Assembly: GCA_005191425.1 (NCBI GenBank)
Contig: SUPR01000116.1
Location: forward strand, 1 to 9,616
Direction of reading: 5' to 3'
Source: Candidatus Helarchaeota ASGARD archaeon Hel_GB_B
Lineage (GTDB): Archaea > Asgardarchaeota > Lokiarchaeia > Helarchaeales > HEL-GB-B
DNA: 9,616 bases
Shown here: one piece after another, positions 1,672 through 9,582 of the stretch
Position numbering within the stretch: the stretch's first letter is position 1
Layout of the letters: every line of letters begins with the position of its first letter
Translations under genes and position numbers: made by a program
Notes under the pieces: model-generated
Told to the model about the DNA's origin: nothing
Seen by the model: only the letters and a program-made list of their open reading frames with translations
Databases searched by the model: none

Positions 1672-2892
1672 TTGAAAATATTATTTATTTTAAATAGTTT
1701 TTATCCAAGCATTGGTGGAGTTGAAAAAGTCACTGAAAATTATTGCAATGAATTAATAAAAATGGGTCATGAAATTTATCTAATATCGTTCAGGAGAGGT
1801 CAAATCAGTTCAATGAATTTAAATACTACTCCTGATTTTGAAGTTTATAATGGTATTAATCTTTACCGAGTATCCGACCGGTTTTATGGTATTTTTATGT
1901 TTTTTAAGATGATAAAAATATATAAAAAAGTAAAATTCGATTTAATTCAGTTTAGTGATTTTTGGGGTGTTTTTGCAATTTTTTTTAAATTGAAATATAA
2001 TATACCAATCGTCCATCATCTGCATGGTTATCAGGAAATTTGTCCGACCGGATTATATCTCTGTGGTAATAGTCATAAATATTCAATAAAACAATGTCAT
2101 TCATACTGTAGTCAAGGGTTATTGAAAATCTTAAGAGAGCGATTTATATACAAATCTATCTGGAAGTTTACCGACCTAATTGTTGCTGTAAGTGACGCAG
2201 TAAAATTTGCGTATATAAAAACTAAATTCTCATTAAAGAAAAAAATATTAACTATTTACAATGGAATATCTTTAGACGAGAATGGGGCGAGTAGTAGCAC
2301 CAAAAATTTATATCAAATAGATAATTCTAATGAAAAAAAAGACCGAGTTCTATTATTCGTTGGGAGGTTAATTGACCATAGGAACATAATCAAAATAATT
2401 CGGATACTTCCGGAACTAATCGAAAAAATAAGCAATTTAAAATTAATTATAACTGGGTCTGGCCCTAAAGCACTACTATTAAAAAGTGAAGTAGAAAAAA
2501 ATGGGTTAAATAAAAATGTTGTATTTACGGGAATATTAACAGGAGATAAATTAGCCAATATGTATCTGAATGCAGATCTATTAGTTATGCCAATAACATT
2601 TCCAGAGCCATTGAGTACGGTAATAATTGAAGCAATGTCAAAAGGTTGTCCAGTAATTACTTTTAATATTGGTGGAATGCCTGAAATTATTGATAATGAA
2701 AAAGATGGTTTCTTAATCCCACCATATGATTGGGAGCTATTTAAGGAAAAAATTATCAAGATATTAACTGATAATAAAAAGTTGATTAAAATTAAACAAA
2801 ATGCCAAAAAAAAGGTCGAATTAAAATTTAATATTAGAAATCAAGCTAGAAAAATAAATAAAATTTATCTTAAACTGATGGGTAGAAAATAG
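1672..2892 (+). CDS. Glycosyltransferase family 4 (GT-B, RfaB-like) with a Cys/His-rich insert
   Basis: TTG start (in-frame TAA two codons upstream). Typical GT4 N-terminus MKILFILNSFYPSIGGVE; IYNGIS; LLFVGRL; E-x7-E motif EPLSTVIIEAMSKGCPVI; GGMPEII. Confidence 0.95.
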   Translation: MKILFILNSFYPSIGGVEKVTENYCNELIKMGHEIYLISFRRGQISSMNLNTTPDFEVYNGINLYRVSDRFYGIFMFFKMIKIYKKVKFDLIQFSDFWGVFAIFFKLKYNIPIVHHLHGYQEICPTGLYLCGNSHKYSIKQCHSYCSQGLLKILRERFIYKSIWKFTDLIVAVSDAVKFAYIKTKFSLKKKILTIYNGISLDENGASSSTKNLYQIDNSNEKKDRVLLFVGRLIDHRNIIKIIRILPELIEKISNLKLIITGSGPKALLLKSEVEKNGLNKNVVFTGILTGDKLANMYLNADLLVMPITFPEPLSTVIIEAMSKGCPVITFNIGGMPEIIDNEKDGFLIPPYDWELFKEKIIKILTDNKKLIKIKQNAKKKVELKFNIRNQARKINKIYLKLMGRK

Positions 2893-2895
2893 TCT

Positions 2896-4065
2896 ATGAA
2901 TATCTGTATTGTAAGTTCCGGGTCTATATATGATTTAATTCCACCAATTTATGGAGGTGGAATACAGAATTATATTTTTTCAATTTCAAAATGTCTGGTT
3001 GCAAAAGGGCATAAGATAATTGTAATTTCAGGGTTATCCTATTCCAATCTCAAACAGTACGAAAAAATTCAAGGTATTGAAATATATCGGATTAAAAAAA
3101 TAAGAAATAAATCTTTATCGACTTTATCATTTAGTCTAAATATAATTAAAATTCTTAAAGAAATAATTAGAAAATATAAAATTCAAGTTATTCATACAAA
3201 TAGTCGAGTAAGCACCAGTATTATTAGACTATTTTTTCCTAATATGCCAATTATATTTACAGAACATAACTGGGATATTCTAATTGCTCCGCCTGGGTAT
3301 AATGCGCCATCGATTTTTTATCCATTAATGTTAATTTTTGAGTTAATGGCATTAAAATTTTCTAACTCAATCGTCTGTCTTACAAAATTTTCTTGTGCAA
3401 TTATTAAGAATTTATTATGGGAGAAAAATATCAAGAAAAAAATACATCATATACCCAATTTTATAGATTTAACGCTTTTAAACAAATATAATAAAAAATT
3501 AGAGAAAAAATTAGGCGATAAGAAATTTTTTATATATATTGGAAGACTAGAAATTGAAAAAAATCTTTTTACCTTATTAAGAGCATTTTCATATATTATT
3601 AAAGAAAAACCTGACTTAAATTTGTATATTATTGGCTTAGGGCCATTATTTAATAAATTAATAAAATTTAAAGAAGAATTAAAATTAAAAAATTGTAAAA
3701 TTTTGGGAAAAATTACAAACAAAGATAAATACACTTATTTGAAAAATTGTAAGGGTTTGATTTTACCCTCATTTTATGAAATTATGCCAACTGTATTACT
3801 AGAAGCATTTGCATTTAAAAAACCAGTAATAGCAAGTTCAATTCCTGCAAATAAATCTTTGATCAATGATAATAGTACTGGATATCTTTTTGATCCAAAT
3901 AACATTGAACAATTAATTAATATATTAAGAAATATCTTAAATAATGAGTCAAAATCTAATACAATTGGAGAAAATGGATATAAAATTTTGAAAAATAAAT
4001 TTATTTTAAATACACAGATTAAAAAAATACTTCAAGTCTATAGGAATTACGCGAGAAAAAAATGA
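2896..4065 (+). CDS. Glycosyltransferase family 4 (GT-B)
   Basis: PPIYGGGIQ N-terminal loop; HIPNFID; YIGRLEIEKN; E-x7-E motif EIMPTVLLEAFAFKKPVIAS. Starts 3 nt after the previous stop. Confidence 0.95.
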   Translation: MNICIVSSGSIYDLIPPIYGGGIQNYIFSISKCLVAKGHKIIVISGLSYSNLKQYEKIQGIEIYRIKKIRNKSLSTLSFSLNIIKILKEIIRKYKIQVIHTNSRVSTSIIRLFFPNMPIIFTEHNWDILIAPPGYNAPSIFYPLMLIFELMALKFSNSIVCLTKFSCAIIKNLLWEKNIKKKIHHIPNFIDLTLLNKYNKKLEKKLGDKKFFIYIGRLEIEKNLFTLLRAFSYIIKEKPDLNLYIIGLGPLFNKLIKFKEELKLKNCKILGKITNKDKYTYLKNCKGLILPSFYEIMPTVLLEAFAFKKPVIASSIPANKSLINDNSTGYLFDPNNIEQLINILRNILNNESKSNTIGENGYKILKNKFILNTQIKKILQVYRNYARKK

Positions 4066-5222
4066 AAATTCTTTATGTCACACTTCAATTTTATCCTAAT
4101 GCTTACGGAAGTGGTATACATGCATATGAAATTTGTAAACAGCTTTTAAATTTAGGTTATAAGGTAGTAATTTTAACACTGAGTAAATTTAATAGATTAT
4201 CACATGAAAATTGGAATGGGCTCGAAATTTACAGAATTAGATTACCATTTAACAATCCGTATTATAATCCATTAAATCCGTTAATATTTTGGCTTTTAGG
4301 TAAACGTATAGCGGGCAAAATAAAAGCAGACATACTCATAGGTCATGGATTTGAGACAAGTTTATTCATAAAATATTCAAAAATCCCTATTAAAATTTAT
4401 AAAGCAAATGGTTCAATGATAGTTCAAAATAAAATACGTCCCAAAATTACTTGGCAAGATAAATTAGGAAAAATCGGATTTTACTTTCTTTCTAAATTAG
4501 AAAAAGAAGCTTGTAAATTTTCCGATAGAATTATAGCAATTTCAGGGTCAATTAAAAAGGAATTATCATTAAATTATAACATATCTCCTAGTAAAATCAT
4601 AAAAATCTTCAATGGAATTGATTATAATAGGTTTAACATTAAAAATCAAAATAATATACACAGAAAATTTAAAAAAGTAATTTATGTTGGAAGATTATCT
4701 TCAATTAAAGGTCCACAAAACATTTTAAAAATTGTCCCTTCAATTATATTGAAATATGGGAAAAATATTCGGTTTGAATTCATTGGAAATGGCCCTCTTT
4801 ATAAATATTTGAAAAGGATGCTTAAAAATTCTAAATATTTAGATTTTATTAAATTCATAGGCGCAGTCCCTAATAATAAAATGCCATTAATTTATTCTAA
4901 TGCAGATCTTTGTATCATTCCATCTTATTATGAACCTTTTGGGCTGGTAGCACTAGAATGTATTGCATCTAATTTACCTGTTTTAGCTTCAAATATTGGT
5001 GGACTTTCTGAAATATTTAATAAATTTAATAATGACCTTTTATTTTCGATAAAAAATAAAGAAGAATTAATTAACAAAACTATTTCTAATCTTTCAAAAA
5101 CAAGAAAATTAAATTCACAAGAAAAAATCAATCAATTTCTTGAAAAAAATTTTAATTGGGCCGAAAATGCACTTCAAACTCATAGATTGATACTACAAAT
5201 AAAAAGAAGTAAAAATTTATAG
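4062..5222 (+). CDS. Glycosyltransferase family 4 (GT-B, MshA/RfaB-like)
   Basis: MKILYVTLQFYPNAYGSG; IFNGID; YVGRLSSIKG; PSYYEPFGLVALE (E-x7-E); SNIGGLSEI. ATGA overlap with the upstream gene at 4062-4065. Confidence 0.95.
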   Translation: MKILYVTLQFYPNAYGSGIHAYEICKQLLNLGYKVVILTLSKFNRLSHENWNGLEIYRIRLPFNNPYYNPLNPLIFWLLGKRIAGKIKADILIGHGFETSLFIKYSKIPIKIYKANGSMIVQNKIRPKITWQDKLGKIGFYFLSKLEKEACKFSDRIIAISGSIKKELSLNYNISPSKIIKIFNGIDYNRFNIKNQNNIHRKFKKVIYVGRLSSIKGPQNILKIVPSIILKYGKNIRFEFIGNGPLYKYLKRMLKNSKYLDFIKFIGAVPNNKMPLIYSNADLCIIPSYYEPFGLVALECIASNLPVLASNIGGLSEIFNKFNNDLLFSIKNKEELINKTISNLSKTRKLNSQEKINQFLEKNFNWAENALQTHRLILQIKRSKNL

Positions 5223-5233: not shown

Positions 5234-6202
5234 TTATTGTTTAGGTACTGCTAATGCTCCTTTAATTAATACAATAAAGACCCATAATGCAATAATTCCT
5301 GCTATTAAAGGTACCAGATATGCTTTTATTCCGAATAGATATGAACTATCTATGAATTTTATACCAATTGCTATTATGAAAAACAATCCAGGAGCAGCTC
5401 CAACGCCCATTACTGCAGCGGTATTCGAAAAGTTTCCTCCTTTAACACCTTTTACTATTCCACTAATTATGATCCAACTGATTATCATAACTCCGATTAT
5501 AACTAAAAACCATCCCCAATAAAACTGGATTGAACCATAAACTGAAATGACCAAACTTCCAATGACCGGGATGATATTGTAAAAATCAATTAACATTTTT
5601 GAATTTGTTAAGGTTAAATATAACCCTAATATACAGATGCCAATTAATAGTAAAAAGAACCCACTACCGATATTTCCAGCTGAATATACTGATTTAAAAG
5701 TAGCTTTACTCCCGACTAATGCGCCAGAAAATTTCCCAAATCCAGATACGGTCGCAACAGGTATTGTTTTTTTAACTTTTCTCTCTTCAGGTGGCAATTT
5801 TTTCAAAGCTTTTGCCCGTTTAATCCATTCTCTAATTAAAATAATTTCTATTCCTGTATCTTCAGATAATAATTCAGGGGACTCCTCTGATAAGTCATTA
5901 ATACTCATAACTCCCGCTGAAACCAATCTTCTTGCGTCTTCCAATTTGATCTCTAATAATTGGCTTAATTCTGCTATTGATGAATCTACTTCCAAGAACT
6001 TTTTTCTTTCTTTTGCTCTGGCTAAAATTATCCATGTAGTTAGTTTCTTTTTTTCTATTGAAGTTGATTTTGATAATTCATCAGGAATTGATTGTCCTAA
6101 TTGCTTAATACTTTTTATACCAGCTGCAATTAAACGTTGGGCGTCTTTCTTTGATATCCCCTTGATTTTCATAAGTTCAGTGACAATTTTTTCTTCAGAC
6201 AT
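5234..6202 (-). CDS. Tandem helix-hairpin-helix (DUF4332/HHH_5-like) domains fused to a Yip1-like multi-pass membrane domain
   Basis: aa 9-63 and 78-132 are HhH-type repeats (LMKIKGISKKDAQRLIAAGIKSIKQL...W57 and LSQLLEIKLEDARRLVSAGVMSINDL...W126). The C-terminal ~170 aa has about 4 hydrophobic segments with Yip1-like hallmarks: ALVGSKATFKSV before TM1, F-x-x-T...MGVGAAPG, and LWVFIVLIKG. SD-like AAGGGA upstream of the ATG. Confidence 0.8.
   Translation of the reverse strand: MSEEKIVTELMKIKGISKKDAQRLIAAGIKSIKQLGQSIPDELSKSTSIEKKKLTTWIILARAKERKKFLEVDSSIAELSQLLEIKLEDARRLVSAGVMSINDLSEESPELLSEDTGIEIILIREWIKRAKALKKLPPEERKVKKTIPVATVSGFGKFSGALVGSKATFKSVYSAGNIGSGFFLLLIGICILGLYLTLTNSKMLIDFYNIIPVIGSLVISVYGSIQFYWGWFLVIIGVMIISWIIISGIVKGVKGGNFSNTAAVMGVGAAPGLFFIIAIGIKFIDSSYLFGIKAYLVPLIAGIIALWVFIVLIKGALAVPKQ
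5807..6178 (-). repeat. Two ~55-aa HhH repeats offset by 69 aa
   Basis: Shared pattern EL..I/L..I...DA.RL..AG..SI..L....P..LS..T.IE......WI..A in both copies. Confidence 0.85.
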
Positions 6203-6463
6203 TATTCTTCCCTTATCGTCCTTTCATTTTTATTCTATGAGTACTTTATTTCAATTAAGATTATTAAAATTTTTGTATTCTTCAAAGAAATTGGTATTTA
6301 CTAATCTTTATTTCTATTAAAATGGTTAAATTAATTTATCTATGAATTTAAAAAATTTTATGAAAGATTAGTATAAATCTTTGAAAAAAGTTTAGTAATT
6401 TTAAATATTGAATAAATATTTCAGGGATCAATCGTTAATTTTAATTTATAGTTCTATTTTTAT

Positions 6464-7603
6464 TTAAAGTTGTAATTTTTTAAATATAAAATCAATGATA
6501 TCATTATAATGTGGAGGACATCCTTTACAATATTCCTCATTTATTTGTTTTGCAAAATTTTTAGTACAATTTCCTAAAAGTATTGGTTTTTTACAATTTT
6601 CTGGCAATTTCTCCCACCCGCTACCTTGAATAATATCAATCCATTCATATTTTGAACTTAATTCATTAAATTTCGATCTTAAATCTTCATTAAAATTTAT
6701 TTTTCTAAGAGTCTGTGATAGTGCGATTTGGCACAAAGTACATATTTTTTCATTTTGATAGGAGATAATATTTCCATACACAATTTTTTTAGCAGGTTTA
6801 ATAAAGTCTGACCTGACTTCATCTAAACTAATACCCAGGTTAGTGAACTTAACTTTTGGGATATGCTTTATCTCATCCACATTAAACCCCATAATCTGAG
6901 CAGCTACATTATCTAATTCAACAATGTTGTTTTCGCCTATTGCAGCCAGCAAGATGTTCATATTTTTTACTTTTGTTTGTGGATTTTGAGTTGGTCCTGA
7001 TCCTTCAAGTGCTGTTATTGCGTCCATTAAAACTAAGTCTGGTTTGACAATTTTACTTAATTCCATTATCATACCATGTAAATTCTCTTTATGGAACTTC
7101 CTTTTTGTGCCTAAATTGAGTAGTCCTTTTTGATTTTTACAAGATAAAGTCACTGTAGTCATAGTATGTGTTTTCATTTTTGGGACATTGATATATTCAA
7201 ATTCTTTATCGAATACAATCTTTGGAAGCAGAATTTTACCAAATTTCCAGTCAACTTTTATTCTCTCTTCGTGTTCTAAATTTAAAATTTTAATTCCAAA
7301 TTCCTTTTCAATTTTGTCATATTTTGTTGTTTTTAATAGTTGTTCAAAATGCTCCGGCTTGGTAAAAAAACCTGTACCTTCACCTATTACAATTTCTTCA
7401 GCACCAATATCCTGAAAATATTCAATTAAGGCTTTAATTAATTTATAGTTTACAATTACTGCTGAACTTGGTGGTAGTGCATCAACAATATTTGGTTTGA
7501 TAAAAACTTTCTTTTTTCTAAGTTTATATCCAATCAATTCTAATAATTTTGTTATGTTTTCCTTTGCATTATTATATTTGGATCTAACAATACCAACGAC
7601 CAT
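6464..7603 (-). CDS. DUF362-family protein with a C-terminal putative Fe-S-binding module
   Basis: DUF362 hallmarks VFIKPN, IGEG, PKMKTH, LSCKNQKG and DAITALEGSGP; C-terminal CTLC...LLGNCT...CKGCPP. Confidence 0.9.
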   Translation of the reverse strand: MVVGIVRSKYNNAKENITKLLELIGYKLRKKKVFIKPNIVDALPPSSAVIVNYKLIKALIEYFQDIGAEEIVIGEGTGFFTKPEHFEQLLKTTKYDKIEKEFGIKILNLEHEERIKVDWKFGKILLPKIVFDKEFEYINVPKMKTHTMTTVTLSCKNQKGLLNLGTKRKFHKENLHGMIMELSKIVKPDLVLMDAITALEGSGPTQNPQTKVKNMNILLAAIGENNIVELDNVAAQIMGFNVDEIKHIPKVKFTNLGISLDEVRSDFIKPAKKIVYGNIISYQNEKICTLCQIALSQTLRKINFNEDLRSKFNELSSKYEWIDIIQGSGWEKLPENCKKPILLGNCTKNFAKQINEEYCKGCPPHYNDIIDFIFKKLQL

Positions 7604-7855: not shown

Positions 7856-8617
7856 TTAACTATTCAGTACTTTATCAATTTTTTGACTCACTAACTGAGA
7901 ATACATAGAAATTAATCCTATTTGTGATTTTGGTGATGTTATTAACACCAATAATGTTTGAGAATTAATATATGACAATATTACAAGCGCATTATCTGCA
8001 ATAATATGAAGAACTTTGAGATTTCCCCCCGACAATGCTTTGATAGAGTCAGTAGCAATGTCAAAAATATTCATTGCAATCATAGACATCATATTATCAC
8101 CGTATTTATCCGAGATAGCTGACGCTAAGATTGTCCCATCTCTTTTCATAATTGCAGATGCTTCTAATAATTTGTCTAATTTATTGAGACTTCTCAAGAG
8201 TTCTTTTAATTCTTTAGATTTTTCTGAAGATATATCACTAACTTTATGTTCTCTTCTTAATTTTTGTATGACTTTAGTCCTAGATGATGGTATAGGCCGT
8301 GAAACTACTTCTACTTTCTTGGACTCTGAGACTACTGGATTTATACCCTGGTTCACTTCTGTATTTACTGAATTAGAAATAGAATTTACACTCGATTTGT
8401 CTTTAGCTTGAGTTAAAGTTTCATATAAACTAGGAGCTCTAATTTCATTATCTATGGATATATTTCGATTATTTTGTCTCTGCTGGTGTAAATTCGGTGG
8501 ATTATTTGTATCTTCTCTTCTTGAATGTCTAATTGGTCTTAATGGAGCACCACATACTGAACAAAATCTCATATCGTCCTCGCATTGAGTACCGCATTGT
8601 GAACAAATAATTACCAA
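7856..8617 (-). CDS. Zinc-ribbon + disordered linker + Roadblock/LC7 (MglB-like) domain protein
   Basis: TTG start. CSQC...FCSVCGAPL zinc ribbon (aa 5-26); N/S/Q/P-rich linker (aa 27-~132); C-terminal helix-bb-helix-bbb-helix pattern with the SAIMKRDGTILAS motif typical of Roadblock/MglB domains. Confidence 0.88.
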   Translation of the reverse strand: MVIICSQCGTQCEDDMRFCSVCGAPLRPIRHSRREDTNNPPNLHQQRQNNRNISIDNEIRAPSLYETLTQAKDKSSVNSISNSVNTEVNQGINPVVSESKKVEVVSRPIPSSRTKVIQKLRREHKVSDISSEKSKELKELLRSLNKLDKLLEASAIMKRDGTILASAISDKYGDNMMSMIAMNIFDIATDSIKALSGGNLKVLHIIADNALVILSYINSQTLLVLITSPKSQIGLISMYSQLVSQKIDKVLNS

Positions 8618-8880: not shown

Positions 8881-9582
8881 CTATAAATATAATTCAAAAC
8901 AATAAAAATCCTGAAATTGAATTTTATCTATATTGACTAGAAATGAATTGAGATTAAAAAAAGGAATAATTGGGATATTAAATGATTTTAAATCTTCCTT
9001 TAATGATGTTATTAATAAAGGAAATATGTAGATTTTATTTGATAATCCTTTAAAAGGTATAATTTCTTTTTTAATTATTCTCTCGGAAAATATTTTTGTT
9101 CTATGTATTTGGTCTAAAGCTGCTTTTTTCAGTGGAGAAATTTTATTTCGCATCCACCACTTTTTACAATCTATAGACAATAAATAGGGCATTTTGTATG
9201 ATATAATATCAATTTCATATCTTCCTCTCTTACGTTCGGTTTTAAATCTGAAATTTGATTTACACTCAAAATCATTAATTTCTAAAATTTTTCTACACAT
9301 CAATTCAAAGTCCTGCCATTTTAAATATTTGAAAAGATCATCACGTGCCCCCATCTCGTACGCTTTTATTGCCAGTTCAATTTTTGACGGGACATGAATT
9401 TTACCTTGATTATATTTTAGATAACCATCCTTCACAGAATTTTTTAATAAATCTAAAAATCTTTTTTGAGTAATTTTCATTTTCTGGTTAAGTTTAACCC
9501 ATAATGCATTAATTGAAAAAGAATTATTGGAAATTACACACAAATCTAAAATAACATTATAAAAATTACAAATCTCGTCCAT
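8881..9582 (-). CDS. Mrr-like / restriction-endonuclease-fold PD-(D/E)xK nuclease with a possible N-terminal winged-helix region
   Basis: LKWQDFELMCRKILEINDF matches the Mrr_cat-type N-terminal helix (W..FE...L...F). Catalytic motifs YEIDII and IDCKKW form D-x12-D-x-K. The N-terminal ~65 aa has a helix-helix-hairpin pattern. Confidence 0.8.
   Translation of the reverse strand: MDEICNFYNVILDLCVISNNSFSINALWVKLNQKMKITQKRFLDLLKNSVKDGYLKYNQGKIHVPSKIELAIKAYEMGARDDLFKYLKWQDFELMCRKILEINDFECKSNFRFKTERKRGRYEIDIISYKMPYLLSIDCKKWWMRNKISPLKKAALDQIHRTKIFSERIIKKEIIPFKGLSNKIYIFPLLITSLKEDLKSFNIPIIPFFNLNSFLVNIDKIQFQDFYCFELYL

Follow-up and report, generated by a model that had tools for sequence, protein, structure and literature searches.

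Positions 5234-6202 on the minus strand of the window (the whole stretch of DNA analysed, 9,616 nucleotides) are a real gene of a Helarchaeota-type Asgard archaeon, encoding a rare and undescribed membrane protein. In the 322-residue product (P0001), two (HhH)2 units are followed by a K/P/E linker and four transmembrane helices. As a tentative explanation, to which we give a probability of about 0.4, we propose that this protein is a clade-specific membrane adaptor, the basic HhH unit 1 of which would bind nucleic acid, probably at the membrane site where the products of the adjoining GT4 glycosyltransferase genes work. New here are the narrow range of the family, the contrast between units 1 and 2, the stronger conservation of the HhH module than of the anchor, the linkage to GT4 genes and, for the long forms, that to a Ras-family GTPase. 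The features concerned are the following.

5234..6202, minus strand: whole gene, 322 codons plus stop, P0001 (ORF list and homologue conservation)
5999..6202, minus strand: (HhH)2 unit 1, residues 1-68, basic, net charge +9 (Pfam, alignment, charge)
5798..5998, minus strand: (HhH)2 unit 2, residues 69-135, acidic, net charge -5 (Pfam, alignment, charge)
5744..5797, minus strand: basic K/P/E linker, residues 136-153 (translation, model)
5672..5743, minus strand: two short amphipathic helices before TM1, residues 154-177 (model, hhalign)
5612..5671, minus strand: TM1, residues 178-197 (hydrophobicity, model)
5519..5611, minus strand: outside loop, residues 198-228, short helices and a beta-hairpin (model, K/R counts)
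5450..5518, minus strand: TM2, residues 229-251 (hydrophobicity, model)
5420..5449, minus strand: cytoplasmic loop, residues 252-261 (hhalign, alignment; K/R mean 2.2)
5357..5419, minus strand: TM3, residues 262-282, with a kink at P271-G272 (model)
5252..5326, minus strand: TM4, residues 293-317 (alignment, hhalign, model)
1672..5222, plus strand: three tandem GT4 glycosyltransferase genes, 1672-2892, 2896-4065 and 4062-5222 (Pfam)
6464..7603, minus strand: DUF362 protein directly upstream, after a gap of 261 nt (Pfam, synteny)
7856..8617, minus strand: Zn-ribbon and Roadblock/LC7 (MAPKK1_Int) protein, two genes upstream (Pfam, synteny)

The frame is the sole conserved long one at its site. 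All the homologues share the protein start MSE(E/D)K in the alignment, and the ATG is preceded by a purine-rich stretch. P0001 is 68-72% identical to five short-form homologues and 42-47% identical to the long forms. The family was found solely in two families of one Asgard order, and the searches made yielded no description of the HhH+Yip1 architecture, which is rare; the earlier note had not recognised the fusion as a characterised protein either.

The protein was compared with Pfam. HHH_5 (PF14520) was matched with 46.1 bits (cut-off 27 bits) and DUF4332 (PF14229) with 43.2 bits (cut-off 23.2 bits), each over two stretches of P0001, which bears out the tandem HhH module read earlier from the DNA. 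Unit 1 has canonical hairpins (K14-G15-I16 and T47-S48-I49), in which G15 is invariant and position 48, a Ser in P0001, is Gly in nearly all homologues. In the alignment, K14, K18, K51 and K52 are invariant or nearly so, and the net charge of the unit is +9 to +12 in 15 of the 15 close family members (six short and nine long forms). The fold search superimposed unit 1 on RadA N-terminal domains with an rmsd of 1.1-1.9 Å at 27-32% identity, and its nearest curated matches, from NCBIfam, were HhH regions of enzymes acting on DNA: topoisomerase I (4e-7), RadA (3e-6), a RecB-like nuclease and Hel308-type helicases. By its fold, its hairpins, its basic charge and its NCBIfam and PDB profile matches, unit 1 thus resembles the N-terminal (HhH)2 of RadA/Rad51, the HhH repeats of Topo V and domain 5 of Hel308/Hjm, but here the HhH sits in a membrane protein instead of a DNA enzyme and is paired with an acidic, degenerate unit.

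This second unit has a net charge of -5 to -8 across the family. Its first hairpin carries a nearly invariant E84 at the expected Gly position, and in its second hairpin E114 (nearly invariant), D115 and T116 (invariant) precede G117. The canonical basic hairpin pattern (h-x-x-h-x-G-h-G/S ... A-x-x-h-h) fits unit 1, not unit 2. Because of its acidic charge and of the Glu at the hairpin Gly, unit 2 is unlikely, from its residues, to bind DNA. When the whole HhH module was submitted to the PDB profile search, the best solved sequence was NusA AR1-AR2 (E 1.7e-6), unit 2 being aligned to AR1. As in the C-terminal AR1-AR2 of E. coli NusA, two consecutive (HhH)2 domains are joined by a helix, and unit 2 is acidic like the NusA acidic repeats. 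The latter bind proteins (the RNA polymerase alpha-CTD and lambda N), not nucleic acid. P0001 differs from NusA by its strongly basic unit 1, and it has neither an S1/KH RNA-binding part nor a link to transcription genes.

The K/P/E linker announced by the earlier note is present in the translation (residues 134-148, KKLPPEERKVKKTIP) and is disordered in the model (pLDDT <50 at 142-152). The HhH module of the short forms shares 66% identity with that of the long forms, the membrane anchor 29%; the cytoplasmic module is therefore the part under constraint and the functional one. This module, which a Ser/Thr kinase of a related archaeon (P0016) also carries as a fusion, behaves as a portable targeting unit. 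The closest other copy in the same genome belongs to a protein joining a ribosomal eL13-like domain and three HhH units, and other archaea have DUF4332-eL32 fusions (NCBIfam PRK12766; an AFDB match named eL32). The literature search on DUF4332 returned a single passing mention. Finally, neither a LEM domain nor a BAF fold appeared among the Pfam matches of the N-terminal 140 residues at E values up to 10.

As for the membrane domain, four hydrophobic helices recur throughout the family. A fifth, weak hydrophobic segment (207-225) lacks conservation; in the model it forms a loop of short helices and a beta-hairpin. The mean K/R count is 2.3 and 2.2 for the predicted inside segments and 0.6 and 0.9 for the outside ones, the family mean of 0.6 being that of the K/R-poor loop 198-228. 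Given these positive-inside counts, the absence of a signal peptide in P0001 and the existence of long forms with DUF4332 at both ends, the N-terminus and its HhH module are predicted to be cytoplasmic, and the inside location expected earlier agrees with this orientation. Since the fifth helix of Yip1 is absent, the C-terminus would also lie inside, both termini then being cytoplasmic. The long-form relatives, of about 500 residues, carry their second DUF4332 module at the C-terminus, in agreement with both ends being inside; this C-terminal module is basic.

The sequence motifs of this domain are of the Yip1 type. The amphipathic helices 154-177 were aligned by hhalign to the N-terminal conserved motif of Yip1 domains. 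The cytoplasmic loop 252-261 bears the Yip1-type signature K-G-G-x-F-x-x-T, aligned by hhalign to the GG motif of Asgard Yip1 proteins, and it is followed in TM3 by V-x-G-x-x-x-x-P-G; T261, G266, P271 and G272 are invariant in a 14-sequence alignment. In TM4, W307 is invariant and positions 314-315 form a nearly invariant pair, K-G in P0001 and R-G in most homologues.

The Pfam checks were not all positive: HHH_5 and DUF4332 were confirmed, but P0001 had no match to Pfam Yip1 (PF04893), even at E 10, and the Yip1 matches of three homologues (P0003, 22.0 bits; P0005, 21.1 bits; P0017, 19.5 bits) were below the gathering cut-off of 28.6 bits. The latter matches, with E values of 1.6e-4 to 9.5e-4, covered positions 8-149 of the 173 positions of the model. 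A comparison with Asgard Yip1 proteins by hhalign was collinear over 165 columns (73% probability, P 3e-5), while the reversed control gave P 0.23 and the ten block shuffles 0.01-0.18, except for one of them at 1.3e-4. As whole-protein fold searches were swamped by the HhH module, the C-terminal domain was folded alone (pLDDT 90.7). With this model, AFDB clusters named Yip1 represented 18 of the 30 best fold matches (TM 0.41-0.65). Furthermore, the best outside match of the family profile was a protein with Pfam Yip1 at 2.8e-16, and this match was reciprocal. Among solved structures, the C-domain model found only generic helical bundles (best Z 5.5), and no Yip1-family member appeared with either the whole protein or the C-domain. 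The ESM Atlas gave a TM of 0.42 or less in the shape search and no usable match in the feature search, and NCBIfam had nothing for the membrane domain.

Taken together, the sub-threshold Pfam matches, the profile-profile match, the AFDB folds and the reciprocal match support a distant Yip1 relationship, the membrane part being shortened to four helices. The resemblance to Yip1 that had been read from the sequence alone is thus upheld, and so is the count of about four TM segments in place of the usual five: Asgard Yip1 proteins and AFDB matches extend 25-46 residues, that is one helix, beyond the aligned part, and the five-TM layout with the C-terminus on the far side was not found in P0001. 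The domain is collinear with the Yip1 family (PF04893, clan CL0112, which includes Yip1p/YIPF, archaeal Zn-ribbon-Yip1 and YknW), with which it shares the amphipathic pre-TM motif, TM1, the outside loop, a TM followed by the cytoplasmic GG-x-F...T, the kinked G/P helix and a helix with Trp and Gly. Like eukaryotic YIPF and Asgard Zn-ribbon-Yip1 proteins, it is preceded by a cytoplasmic N-terminal domain. It differs from them in scoring below the Pfam cut-off (22 against 28.6 bits for the best homologue, none for P0001), in having its C-terminus inside instead of outside and in its tandem HhH domain, which the searches made found in no described Yip1 protein.

A 322-residue frame with a weak Yip1 match in a genome of the same class at first seemed orthologous but turned out to encode an unrelated Zn-ribbon-Yip1-like protein, with no counterpart in this genome. 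The idea that the family replaces canonical Yip1 was also rejected, sister genomes with the family holding canonical Yip1 genes as well. For the same reason, the fact that Pfam Yip1 found no match in a six-frame search of this genome (93.7% complete) is uninformative. In a related genome, a paralogue has the same Yip1-like domain fused to an FtsX/MacB-type permease, which matches the YknW-YknZ partnership of Bacillus.

The gene is convergent with the three GT4 genes, the last of which ends 11 nt from its stop. This tail-to-tail arrangement was found in 10 of the 10 loci with enough flanking sequence, in short as well as long forms, at 42-47% identity to each other, and the four genes stay together as a block in both clades despite differing flanks and orientation. 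The adjacent GT4 has clear orthologues in both families that bear the gene (56% and 41% identity); the two genomes of the same order without the gene yielded only generic paralogues. On the three transferases, NCBIfam returned generic GT4 names only. The block is flanked by a DUF362 gene in both clades, but by a different paralogue in each: as the block-adjacent copies are only 28% identical, DUF362 was discarded as one conserved partner. The true orthologue of the DUF362 protein of the window lies elsewhere, away from the block, in genomes without the gene.

The GT4 linkage, of which the earlier note says nothing, is the ground for the strongest alternative, which we consider unlikely: the protein would be a membrane scaffold for the three GT4 enzymes, its HhH units acting purely as protein adaptors without nucleic acid. 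Soluble GT4s would then be recruited or ordered on the Yip1-like anchor, a lipid-linked or membrane glycan being built at one site. The conserved linkage and the joint occurrence of the gene and the adjacent GT4 support the HhH module as a protein adaptor, and NusA AR1-AR2 as best solved match and the acidic unit 2 point in the same direction. As a parallel, PIG-A, a GT4 enzyme, requires small multi-pass membrane proteins as partners. However, convergent genes are not co-transcribed, and with such short 3' spacers (-4 to 31 nt in most loci) there are few points at which a break would do no harm, so that the linkage may persist passively. Moreover, co-presence and co-absence could reflect one gain or loss event, the HhH module is carried by the kinase in a locus without GT4 genes, and the curated matches of unit 1 are DNA enzymes.

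We now return to the nucleic-acid adaptor. By computation, the protein has a Yip1-like four-TM anchor which has lost the fifth helix and has both termini in the cytoplasm, into which about 175 N-terminal residues project: the two (HhH)2 units, the flexible linker and the two amphipathic helices. Unit 1 would grip the backbone phosphates of duplex nucleic acid, most likely of DNA, whatever the sequence, for which the RadA/Rad51 N-domains, the Topo V repeats and the HhH phasin PhaH may serve as precedents. By analogy with NusA AR1/AR2, unit 2 may be a protein-docking or self-masking surface without DNA binding. The bundle could oligomerise like Yip1-family proteins: YIPF proteins are tetrameric (PMC6682643), and YknW oligomerises and acts as an assembly factor (PMC4887032). 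In such an oligomer, many weak HhH contacts would add up and a polymer would be held at the membrane; in the long forms, the second basic DUF4332 module might double the valency. The protein probably acts at the membrane site of the products of the three linked GT4 genes.

A DNA-to-membrane tether is, in these terms, plausible. ComEA is a membrane-anchored HhH DNA receptor. With it and with Caulobacter PhaH, whose HhH domain tethers PHB granules to the nucleoid (PMC13052382), P0001 shares an anchor to a cell structure joined to HhH; these are functional analogues, DNA binding being predicted here, and no sequence relationship is detectable beyond the HhH fold. PhaH is anchored to PHB granules and P0001 to a membrane, while the HhH of ComEA faces outward and takes up foreign DNA, unlike the predicted cytoplasmic module of P0001. 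LEM-domain/BAF tethering, which the earlier note had evoked, shares only the idea of a membrane protein holding chromatin via a small helical module, an analogy and not homology: the membrane domains belong to different families, and no nucleus is known in this organism.

Several observations speak against a nucleic-acid adaptor. The best solved match of the whole module, NusA AR1-AR2, binds proteins, and unit 2 is clearly not DNA-competent. The very high conservation of the module could be explained by a specific protein partner no less well than by DNA binding without specificity. The sole conserved genomic link is with glycosyltransferases, and no replication, segregation or chromatin genes are linked. 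The confinement of the family to two families of one order disfavours a core chromosome-organising role.

A Yip1-type receptor or regulator of a Ras/Rab-like small GTPase, with the HhH as an added targeting domain, appears improbable. In the manner of eukaryotic Yip1/YIPF, it would recruit a small GTPase to the membrane or release it there. In favour are the Yip1-like character of the membrane domain and a Ras-family GTPase (Pfam Ras 1e-44) directly upstream on the same strand in 7 of the 7 long-form loci with upstream flank, and the short-form loci, the window included, have kept the Zn-ribbon and Roadblock/LC7 arrangement two genes upstream, a fold which often regulates small GTPases. On the other hand, no GTPase adjoins the gene at the window's own locus, and this genome holds no clear orthologue of the long-form GTPase among 16 close paralogues. 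With 14 to 53 close Ras-like paralogues per genome, chance adjacency is not rare, and the long-form adjacency is a single inherited event. In addition, the neighbouring GTPases lack a C-terminal Cys for a lipid anchor, and no prokaryotic Yip1 protein is known to bind a GTPase. A complex prediction for a long-form relative and its neighbouring GTPase scored 0.00, which, without controls, speaks neither for nor against binding.

A more elaborate reading, in which an Asgard Yip1-derived protein holds chromosomal DNA at the cell membrane or at an internal one, together with the GTPase (long forms) or the Roadblock regulator (short forms) and the GT4 trio, is also doubtful. There is equally little probability that the four-helix bundle is a small transporter or flippase, for instance for a lipid-linked sugar made by the GT4 enzymes, with a regulatory HhH. 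A role as channel or transporter has been proposed for Yip1-clan domains, on the grounds that their helices contain polar residues and their profiles resemble those of permeases (PMC6682643). The permease fusion of the paralogue echoes the Bacillus YknW-YknZ pair (PMC4887032), and the GT4 linkage is also consistent with this proposal. Nevertheless, no transport activity is known for Yip1-family proteins, YknW being an assembly factor and not a pump. It would be unusual for a catalytic or transport core to be, like this domain (29% identity between forms), the part of the protein that varies most; nor was the model of the domain clearly matched by a solved transporter (best Z 5.5). Least probable of all is a tether in which the basic HhH unit binds rRNA or mRNA and holds ribosomes or transcripts at the membrane, as the eL13-like and eL32 fusions which favour it are similar at domain-family level only (E 7e-10 and 1e-4), HhH domains typically bind duplex DNA and the neighbourhood has no translocon or ribosomal genes.

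Lists of the eukaryote-like trafficking proteins of Asgard archaea include Yip1, and we know of no prokaryotic Yip1 protein with a known role apart from YknW. Although the narrow distribution of the family limits its general importance, this family shows the Yip1 membrane fold reused: cut to four helices, with both ends cytoplasmic and an HhH of nucleic-acid type added. If the HhH module binds the GT4s, the DUF4332/HhH modules that recur on membrane proteins of many prokaryotes would be protein adaptors and not DNA binders. If it binds DNA, the protein would be a simple tether between membrane and DNA in the archaea most closely related to eukaryotes. In either case, this would be the first function for DUF4332. 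Should the chromatin-tether reading be true, the protein would be a possible analogue of the inner-nuclear-membrane tethers, built from a trafficking-type protein.

In the AT-rich window (GC 22-30%), the gene of P0001, a membrane protein with an N-terminal HhH module, and the genes upstream of it are encoded as follows.

5234-6202, minus strand: P0001 gene, 322-aa open frame
6464-7603, minus strand: DUF362 protein with a Cys-rich C-terminal part
7856-8617, minus strand: Zn-ribbon, long low-complexity linker and Roadblock domain (Pfam MAPKK1_Int, LAMTOR3/MP1-type; 25.6 bits, barely above the cut-off of 25)
8881-9582, minus strand: 233-aa protein with a weak match, under the cut-off, to Mrr_cat (restriction endonuclease fold; E 0.0096)

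The ATG of P0001 lies just 3' of a purine-rich stretch, and the start MSE(E/D)K is common to all homologues. Antisense within this conserved gene, at 5637-6320 (plus), lies a 227-aa open frame, in all likelihood a shadow of the AT-rich sequence rather than a gene. The nearest relatives of P0001 are MAG proteins named Helarchaeota, Lokiarchaeota or Promethearchaeota by the source databases, which places the organism among the Asgard archaea, and the window DNA is also present in marine-sediment and hydrothermal-vent metagenomes.

The N-terminal module of P0001 is a true member of HHH_5/DUF4332. In Pfam, each family matched over two stretches, HHH_5 with 46.1 bits (cut-off 27) and DUF4332 with 43.2 bits (cut-off 23.2), and the AlphaFold model of P0001 contains two five-helix (HhH)2 units with a long connecting helix. 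The closest NCBIfam matches, all partial, were to DNA enzymes in their HhH parts: topoisomerase I, a RecB-like nuclease, RadA and Hel308-type helicases. When the family profile was compared with solved sequences, E. coli NusA AR1-AR2 ranked first (E 1.7e-6), followed by Topo V, Hjm and RadA; with Foldseek, unit 1 superposed on RadA N-domains (rmsd 1.1-1.9 Å, 27-32% identity). In unit 1 (aa 1-68) the hairpins are canonical, with their Gly and Lys conserved, and the net charge is +9 to +12 in 15/15 close members (nine long forms and six short forms, P0001 among the latter). Unit 2 (aa 69-135) carries a nearly invariant Glu84 at the expected hairpin Gly position, an acidic Glu114-Asp115 pair ahead of the second hairpin and a net charge of -5 to -8; it is similar to NusA's acidic repeats, which bind proteins. 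Because hairpins and charge differ between the units, contact with the phosphate backbone looks possible, as judged from sequence, for unit 1 and not for unit 2.

Four independent results point to a distant Yip1 relationship of the membrane domain. First, Pfam Yip1 did not match P0001 itself, but three homologues matched it (E 1.6e-4 to 9.5e-4, model positions 8-149 of 173); it was the sole Pfam family matched by more than two family members. Second, hhalign aligned the family C-domain collinearly with 11 Asgard Yip1 proteins over 165 columns (73% probability, P 3e-5), while the reversed control gave P 0.23 and ten block shuffles P 0.01-0.18, with one at 1.3e-4. Third, the C-domain folded alone (pLDDT 90.7, pTM 0.80) retrieved AFDB clusters, 18 among the best 30 being named Yip1 (TM 0.41-0.65). 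Finally, the best outside match of the family profile in 400 Asgard genomes was a Zn-ribbon plus Yip1 protein (Pfam Yip1 2.8e-16). In the hhalign, Pfam and AFDB matches, the aligned region stops one helix short of Yip1's end, which agrees with the earlier note that the bundle is shorter than a five-pass Yip1. Since P0001 lies under the Pfam cut-off and lacks the five helices, two defining features of Yip1, it should be labelled Yip1-like rather than a Yip1 family member. A Yip1-like paralogue without HhH units (E 1.3e-16 to the family profile) occurs in a related genome, G168 (contig C190, L032:310-2019, minus; also L037:3454-5163). Its fusion partner is an FtsX/MacB-type permease (Pfam FtsX, 9e-15), which makes it the YknW-YknZ partnership of Bacillus in one chain.

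The topology of P0001, like its architecture, is given by computation. Four hydrophobic helices recur throughout the family; a fifth segment, weak and without conservation, forms an outside loop containing a beta-hairpin in the model. K/R means were 2.3 and 2.2 in the predicted inside segments versus 0.6 and 0.9 in the outside loops, and the N-terminal 177 residues hold 33 K/R and no signal peptide. The long forms (~485-525 aa) continue beyond TM4 with a spacer rich in P and T and then a complete DUF4332 domain (E 1e-14). Two soluble HhH modules flanking the bundle fit an even helix number with both ends in the cytoplasm, a location made possible by the loss of Yip1's fifth helix.

The family is tiny: searching 5.8 billion sequences gave 15 proteins, and searching 1.8 billion gave six clusters at 50% identity, one of which is a 1,540-aa protein that matched weakly and repeatedly (E 1.5e-4). 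A profile search over 400 Asgard genomes detected it in the window's own family (2/2) and in a second family of its order (3/3); the order's third family (0/2) and the remaining ~390 genomes gave no match. Short and long forms share 66% identity in the HhH module and 29% in the membrane domain. Furthermore, on a related metagenomic Asgard contig, the same tandem HhH module (61% identical) is joined to a Ser/Thr protein kinase domain (P0016, L038:22-1380, plus), with neither a membrane domain nor GT4 neighbours on that contig. The identities and this fusion make the cytoplasmic module the constrained, portable part. In the window's own genome, the closest other copy of the module belongs to a 366-aa protein (contig C124, L002:1177-2277, plus) with an eL13-like domain (Pfam Ribosomal_L13e, 6e-11) and three HhH/DUF4332 units.

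The P0001-family gene lies tail-to-tail with the same three tandem GT4 glycosyltransferase genes in 10/10 distinct loci having enough flank; in an eleventh, the adjacent GT4 is visible before the short contig ends. This four-gene block keeps its internal order and is inverted between the short-form and long-form clades relative to a flanking coiled-coil gene. Clear orthologues of the adjacent GT4 (56% and 41% identity) exist where the P0001-family gene does, and two same-order genomes without it have generic paralogues only. This suggests a functional link, although the genes are convergent and hence not co-transcribed, the mostly tiny 3' spacers leave few harmless breakpoints, and the shared presence and absence may be one single event. 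In the main rival explanation, P0001 would be purely a protein scaffold for the three GT4 enzymes; it leans on this block, under the same reservations, and we regard it as rather unlikely. The coiled-coil gene itself (1-1560, minus) is long, has an acidic Asn-rich head and is cut by the window edge; its homologues (frames of 376-747 aa) border the block in both clades.

A Yip1-type GTPase receptor is a lesser alternative. A Ras-family GTPase lies directly upstream of the long-form gene in 7/7 loci with upstream flank; short-form loci, the window included, have the DUF362 and Zn-ribbon-Roadblock genes instead. With 14-53 close Ras-like paralogues per genome, this adjacency was given little weight. 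In four of these GTPases (L021:4079-4636, L023:1806-2336, L033:7444-7986 and L034:3510-4040 (+)), switch II mostly reads W-D-M-G-G-H, with His at the catalytic Gln position of Ras/Rab (Gln in one of the four), and no C-terminal Cys for lipid attachment was present. Wherever a short-form locus has enough flank, the Zn-ribbon-Roadblock gene is conserved at the second position upstream; the 233-aa protein, too, is conserved in short-form loci. DUF362 genes stand beside the block in both clades as paralogues of 28% identity, and true orthologues of the window's copy occupy unrelated contexts in same-order genomes; the presence of two paralogues beside one block could be coincidental or meaningful. 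Several long-form loci carry an archaeal gene for a histone fold, three to five genes upstream of the P0001 homologue (L021:264-500, L022:1425-1661, L024:1635-1871, L055:2271-2504 (-)).

Taken at a probability of about 40%, our preferred reading is that P0001 is a membrane-anchored adaptor. The four-helix Yip1-like bundle would anchor the protein, probably as an oligomer, as proposed by likeness to other, oligomeric Yip1-family proteins (PMC6682643, PMC4887032). It would present the basic unit 1 for non-specific nucleic acid binding, and the acidic unit 2 would dock a protein or mask unit 1, so that P0001 may act as a tether. A tether for RNA or ribosomes, which would use the basic HhH unit, and a small flippase, which would be the four-helix bundle itself, are less probable still than the scaffold.

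No description of the HhH-Yip1 combination was found in the literature, where a single paper mentions DUF4332 in passing. A narrow range and a function that is so far only proposed limit the importance of the P0001 family; its interest comes from its place in Asgard archaea and from its testability.
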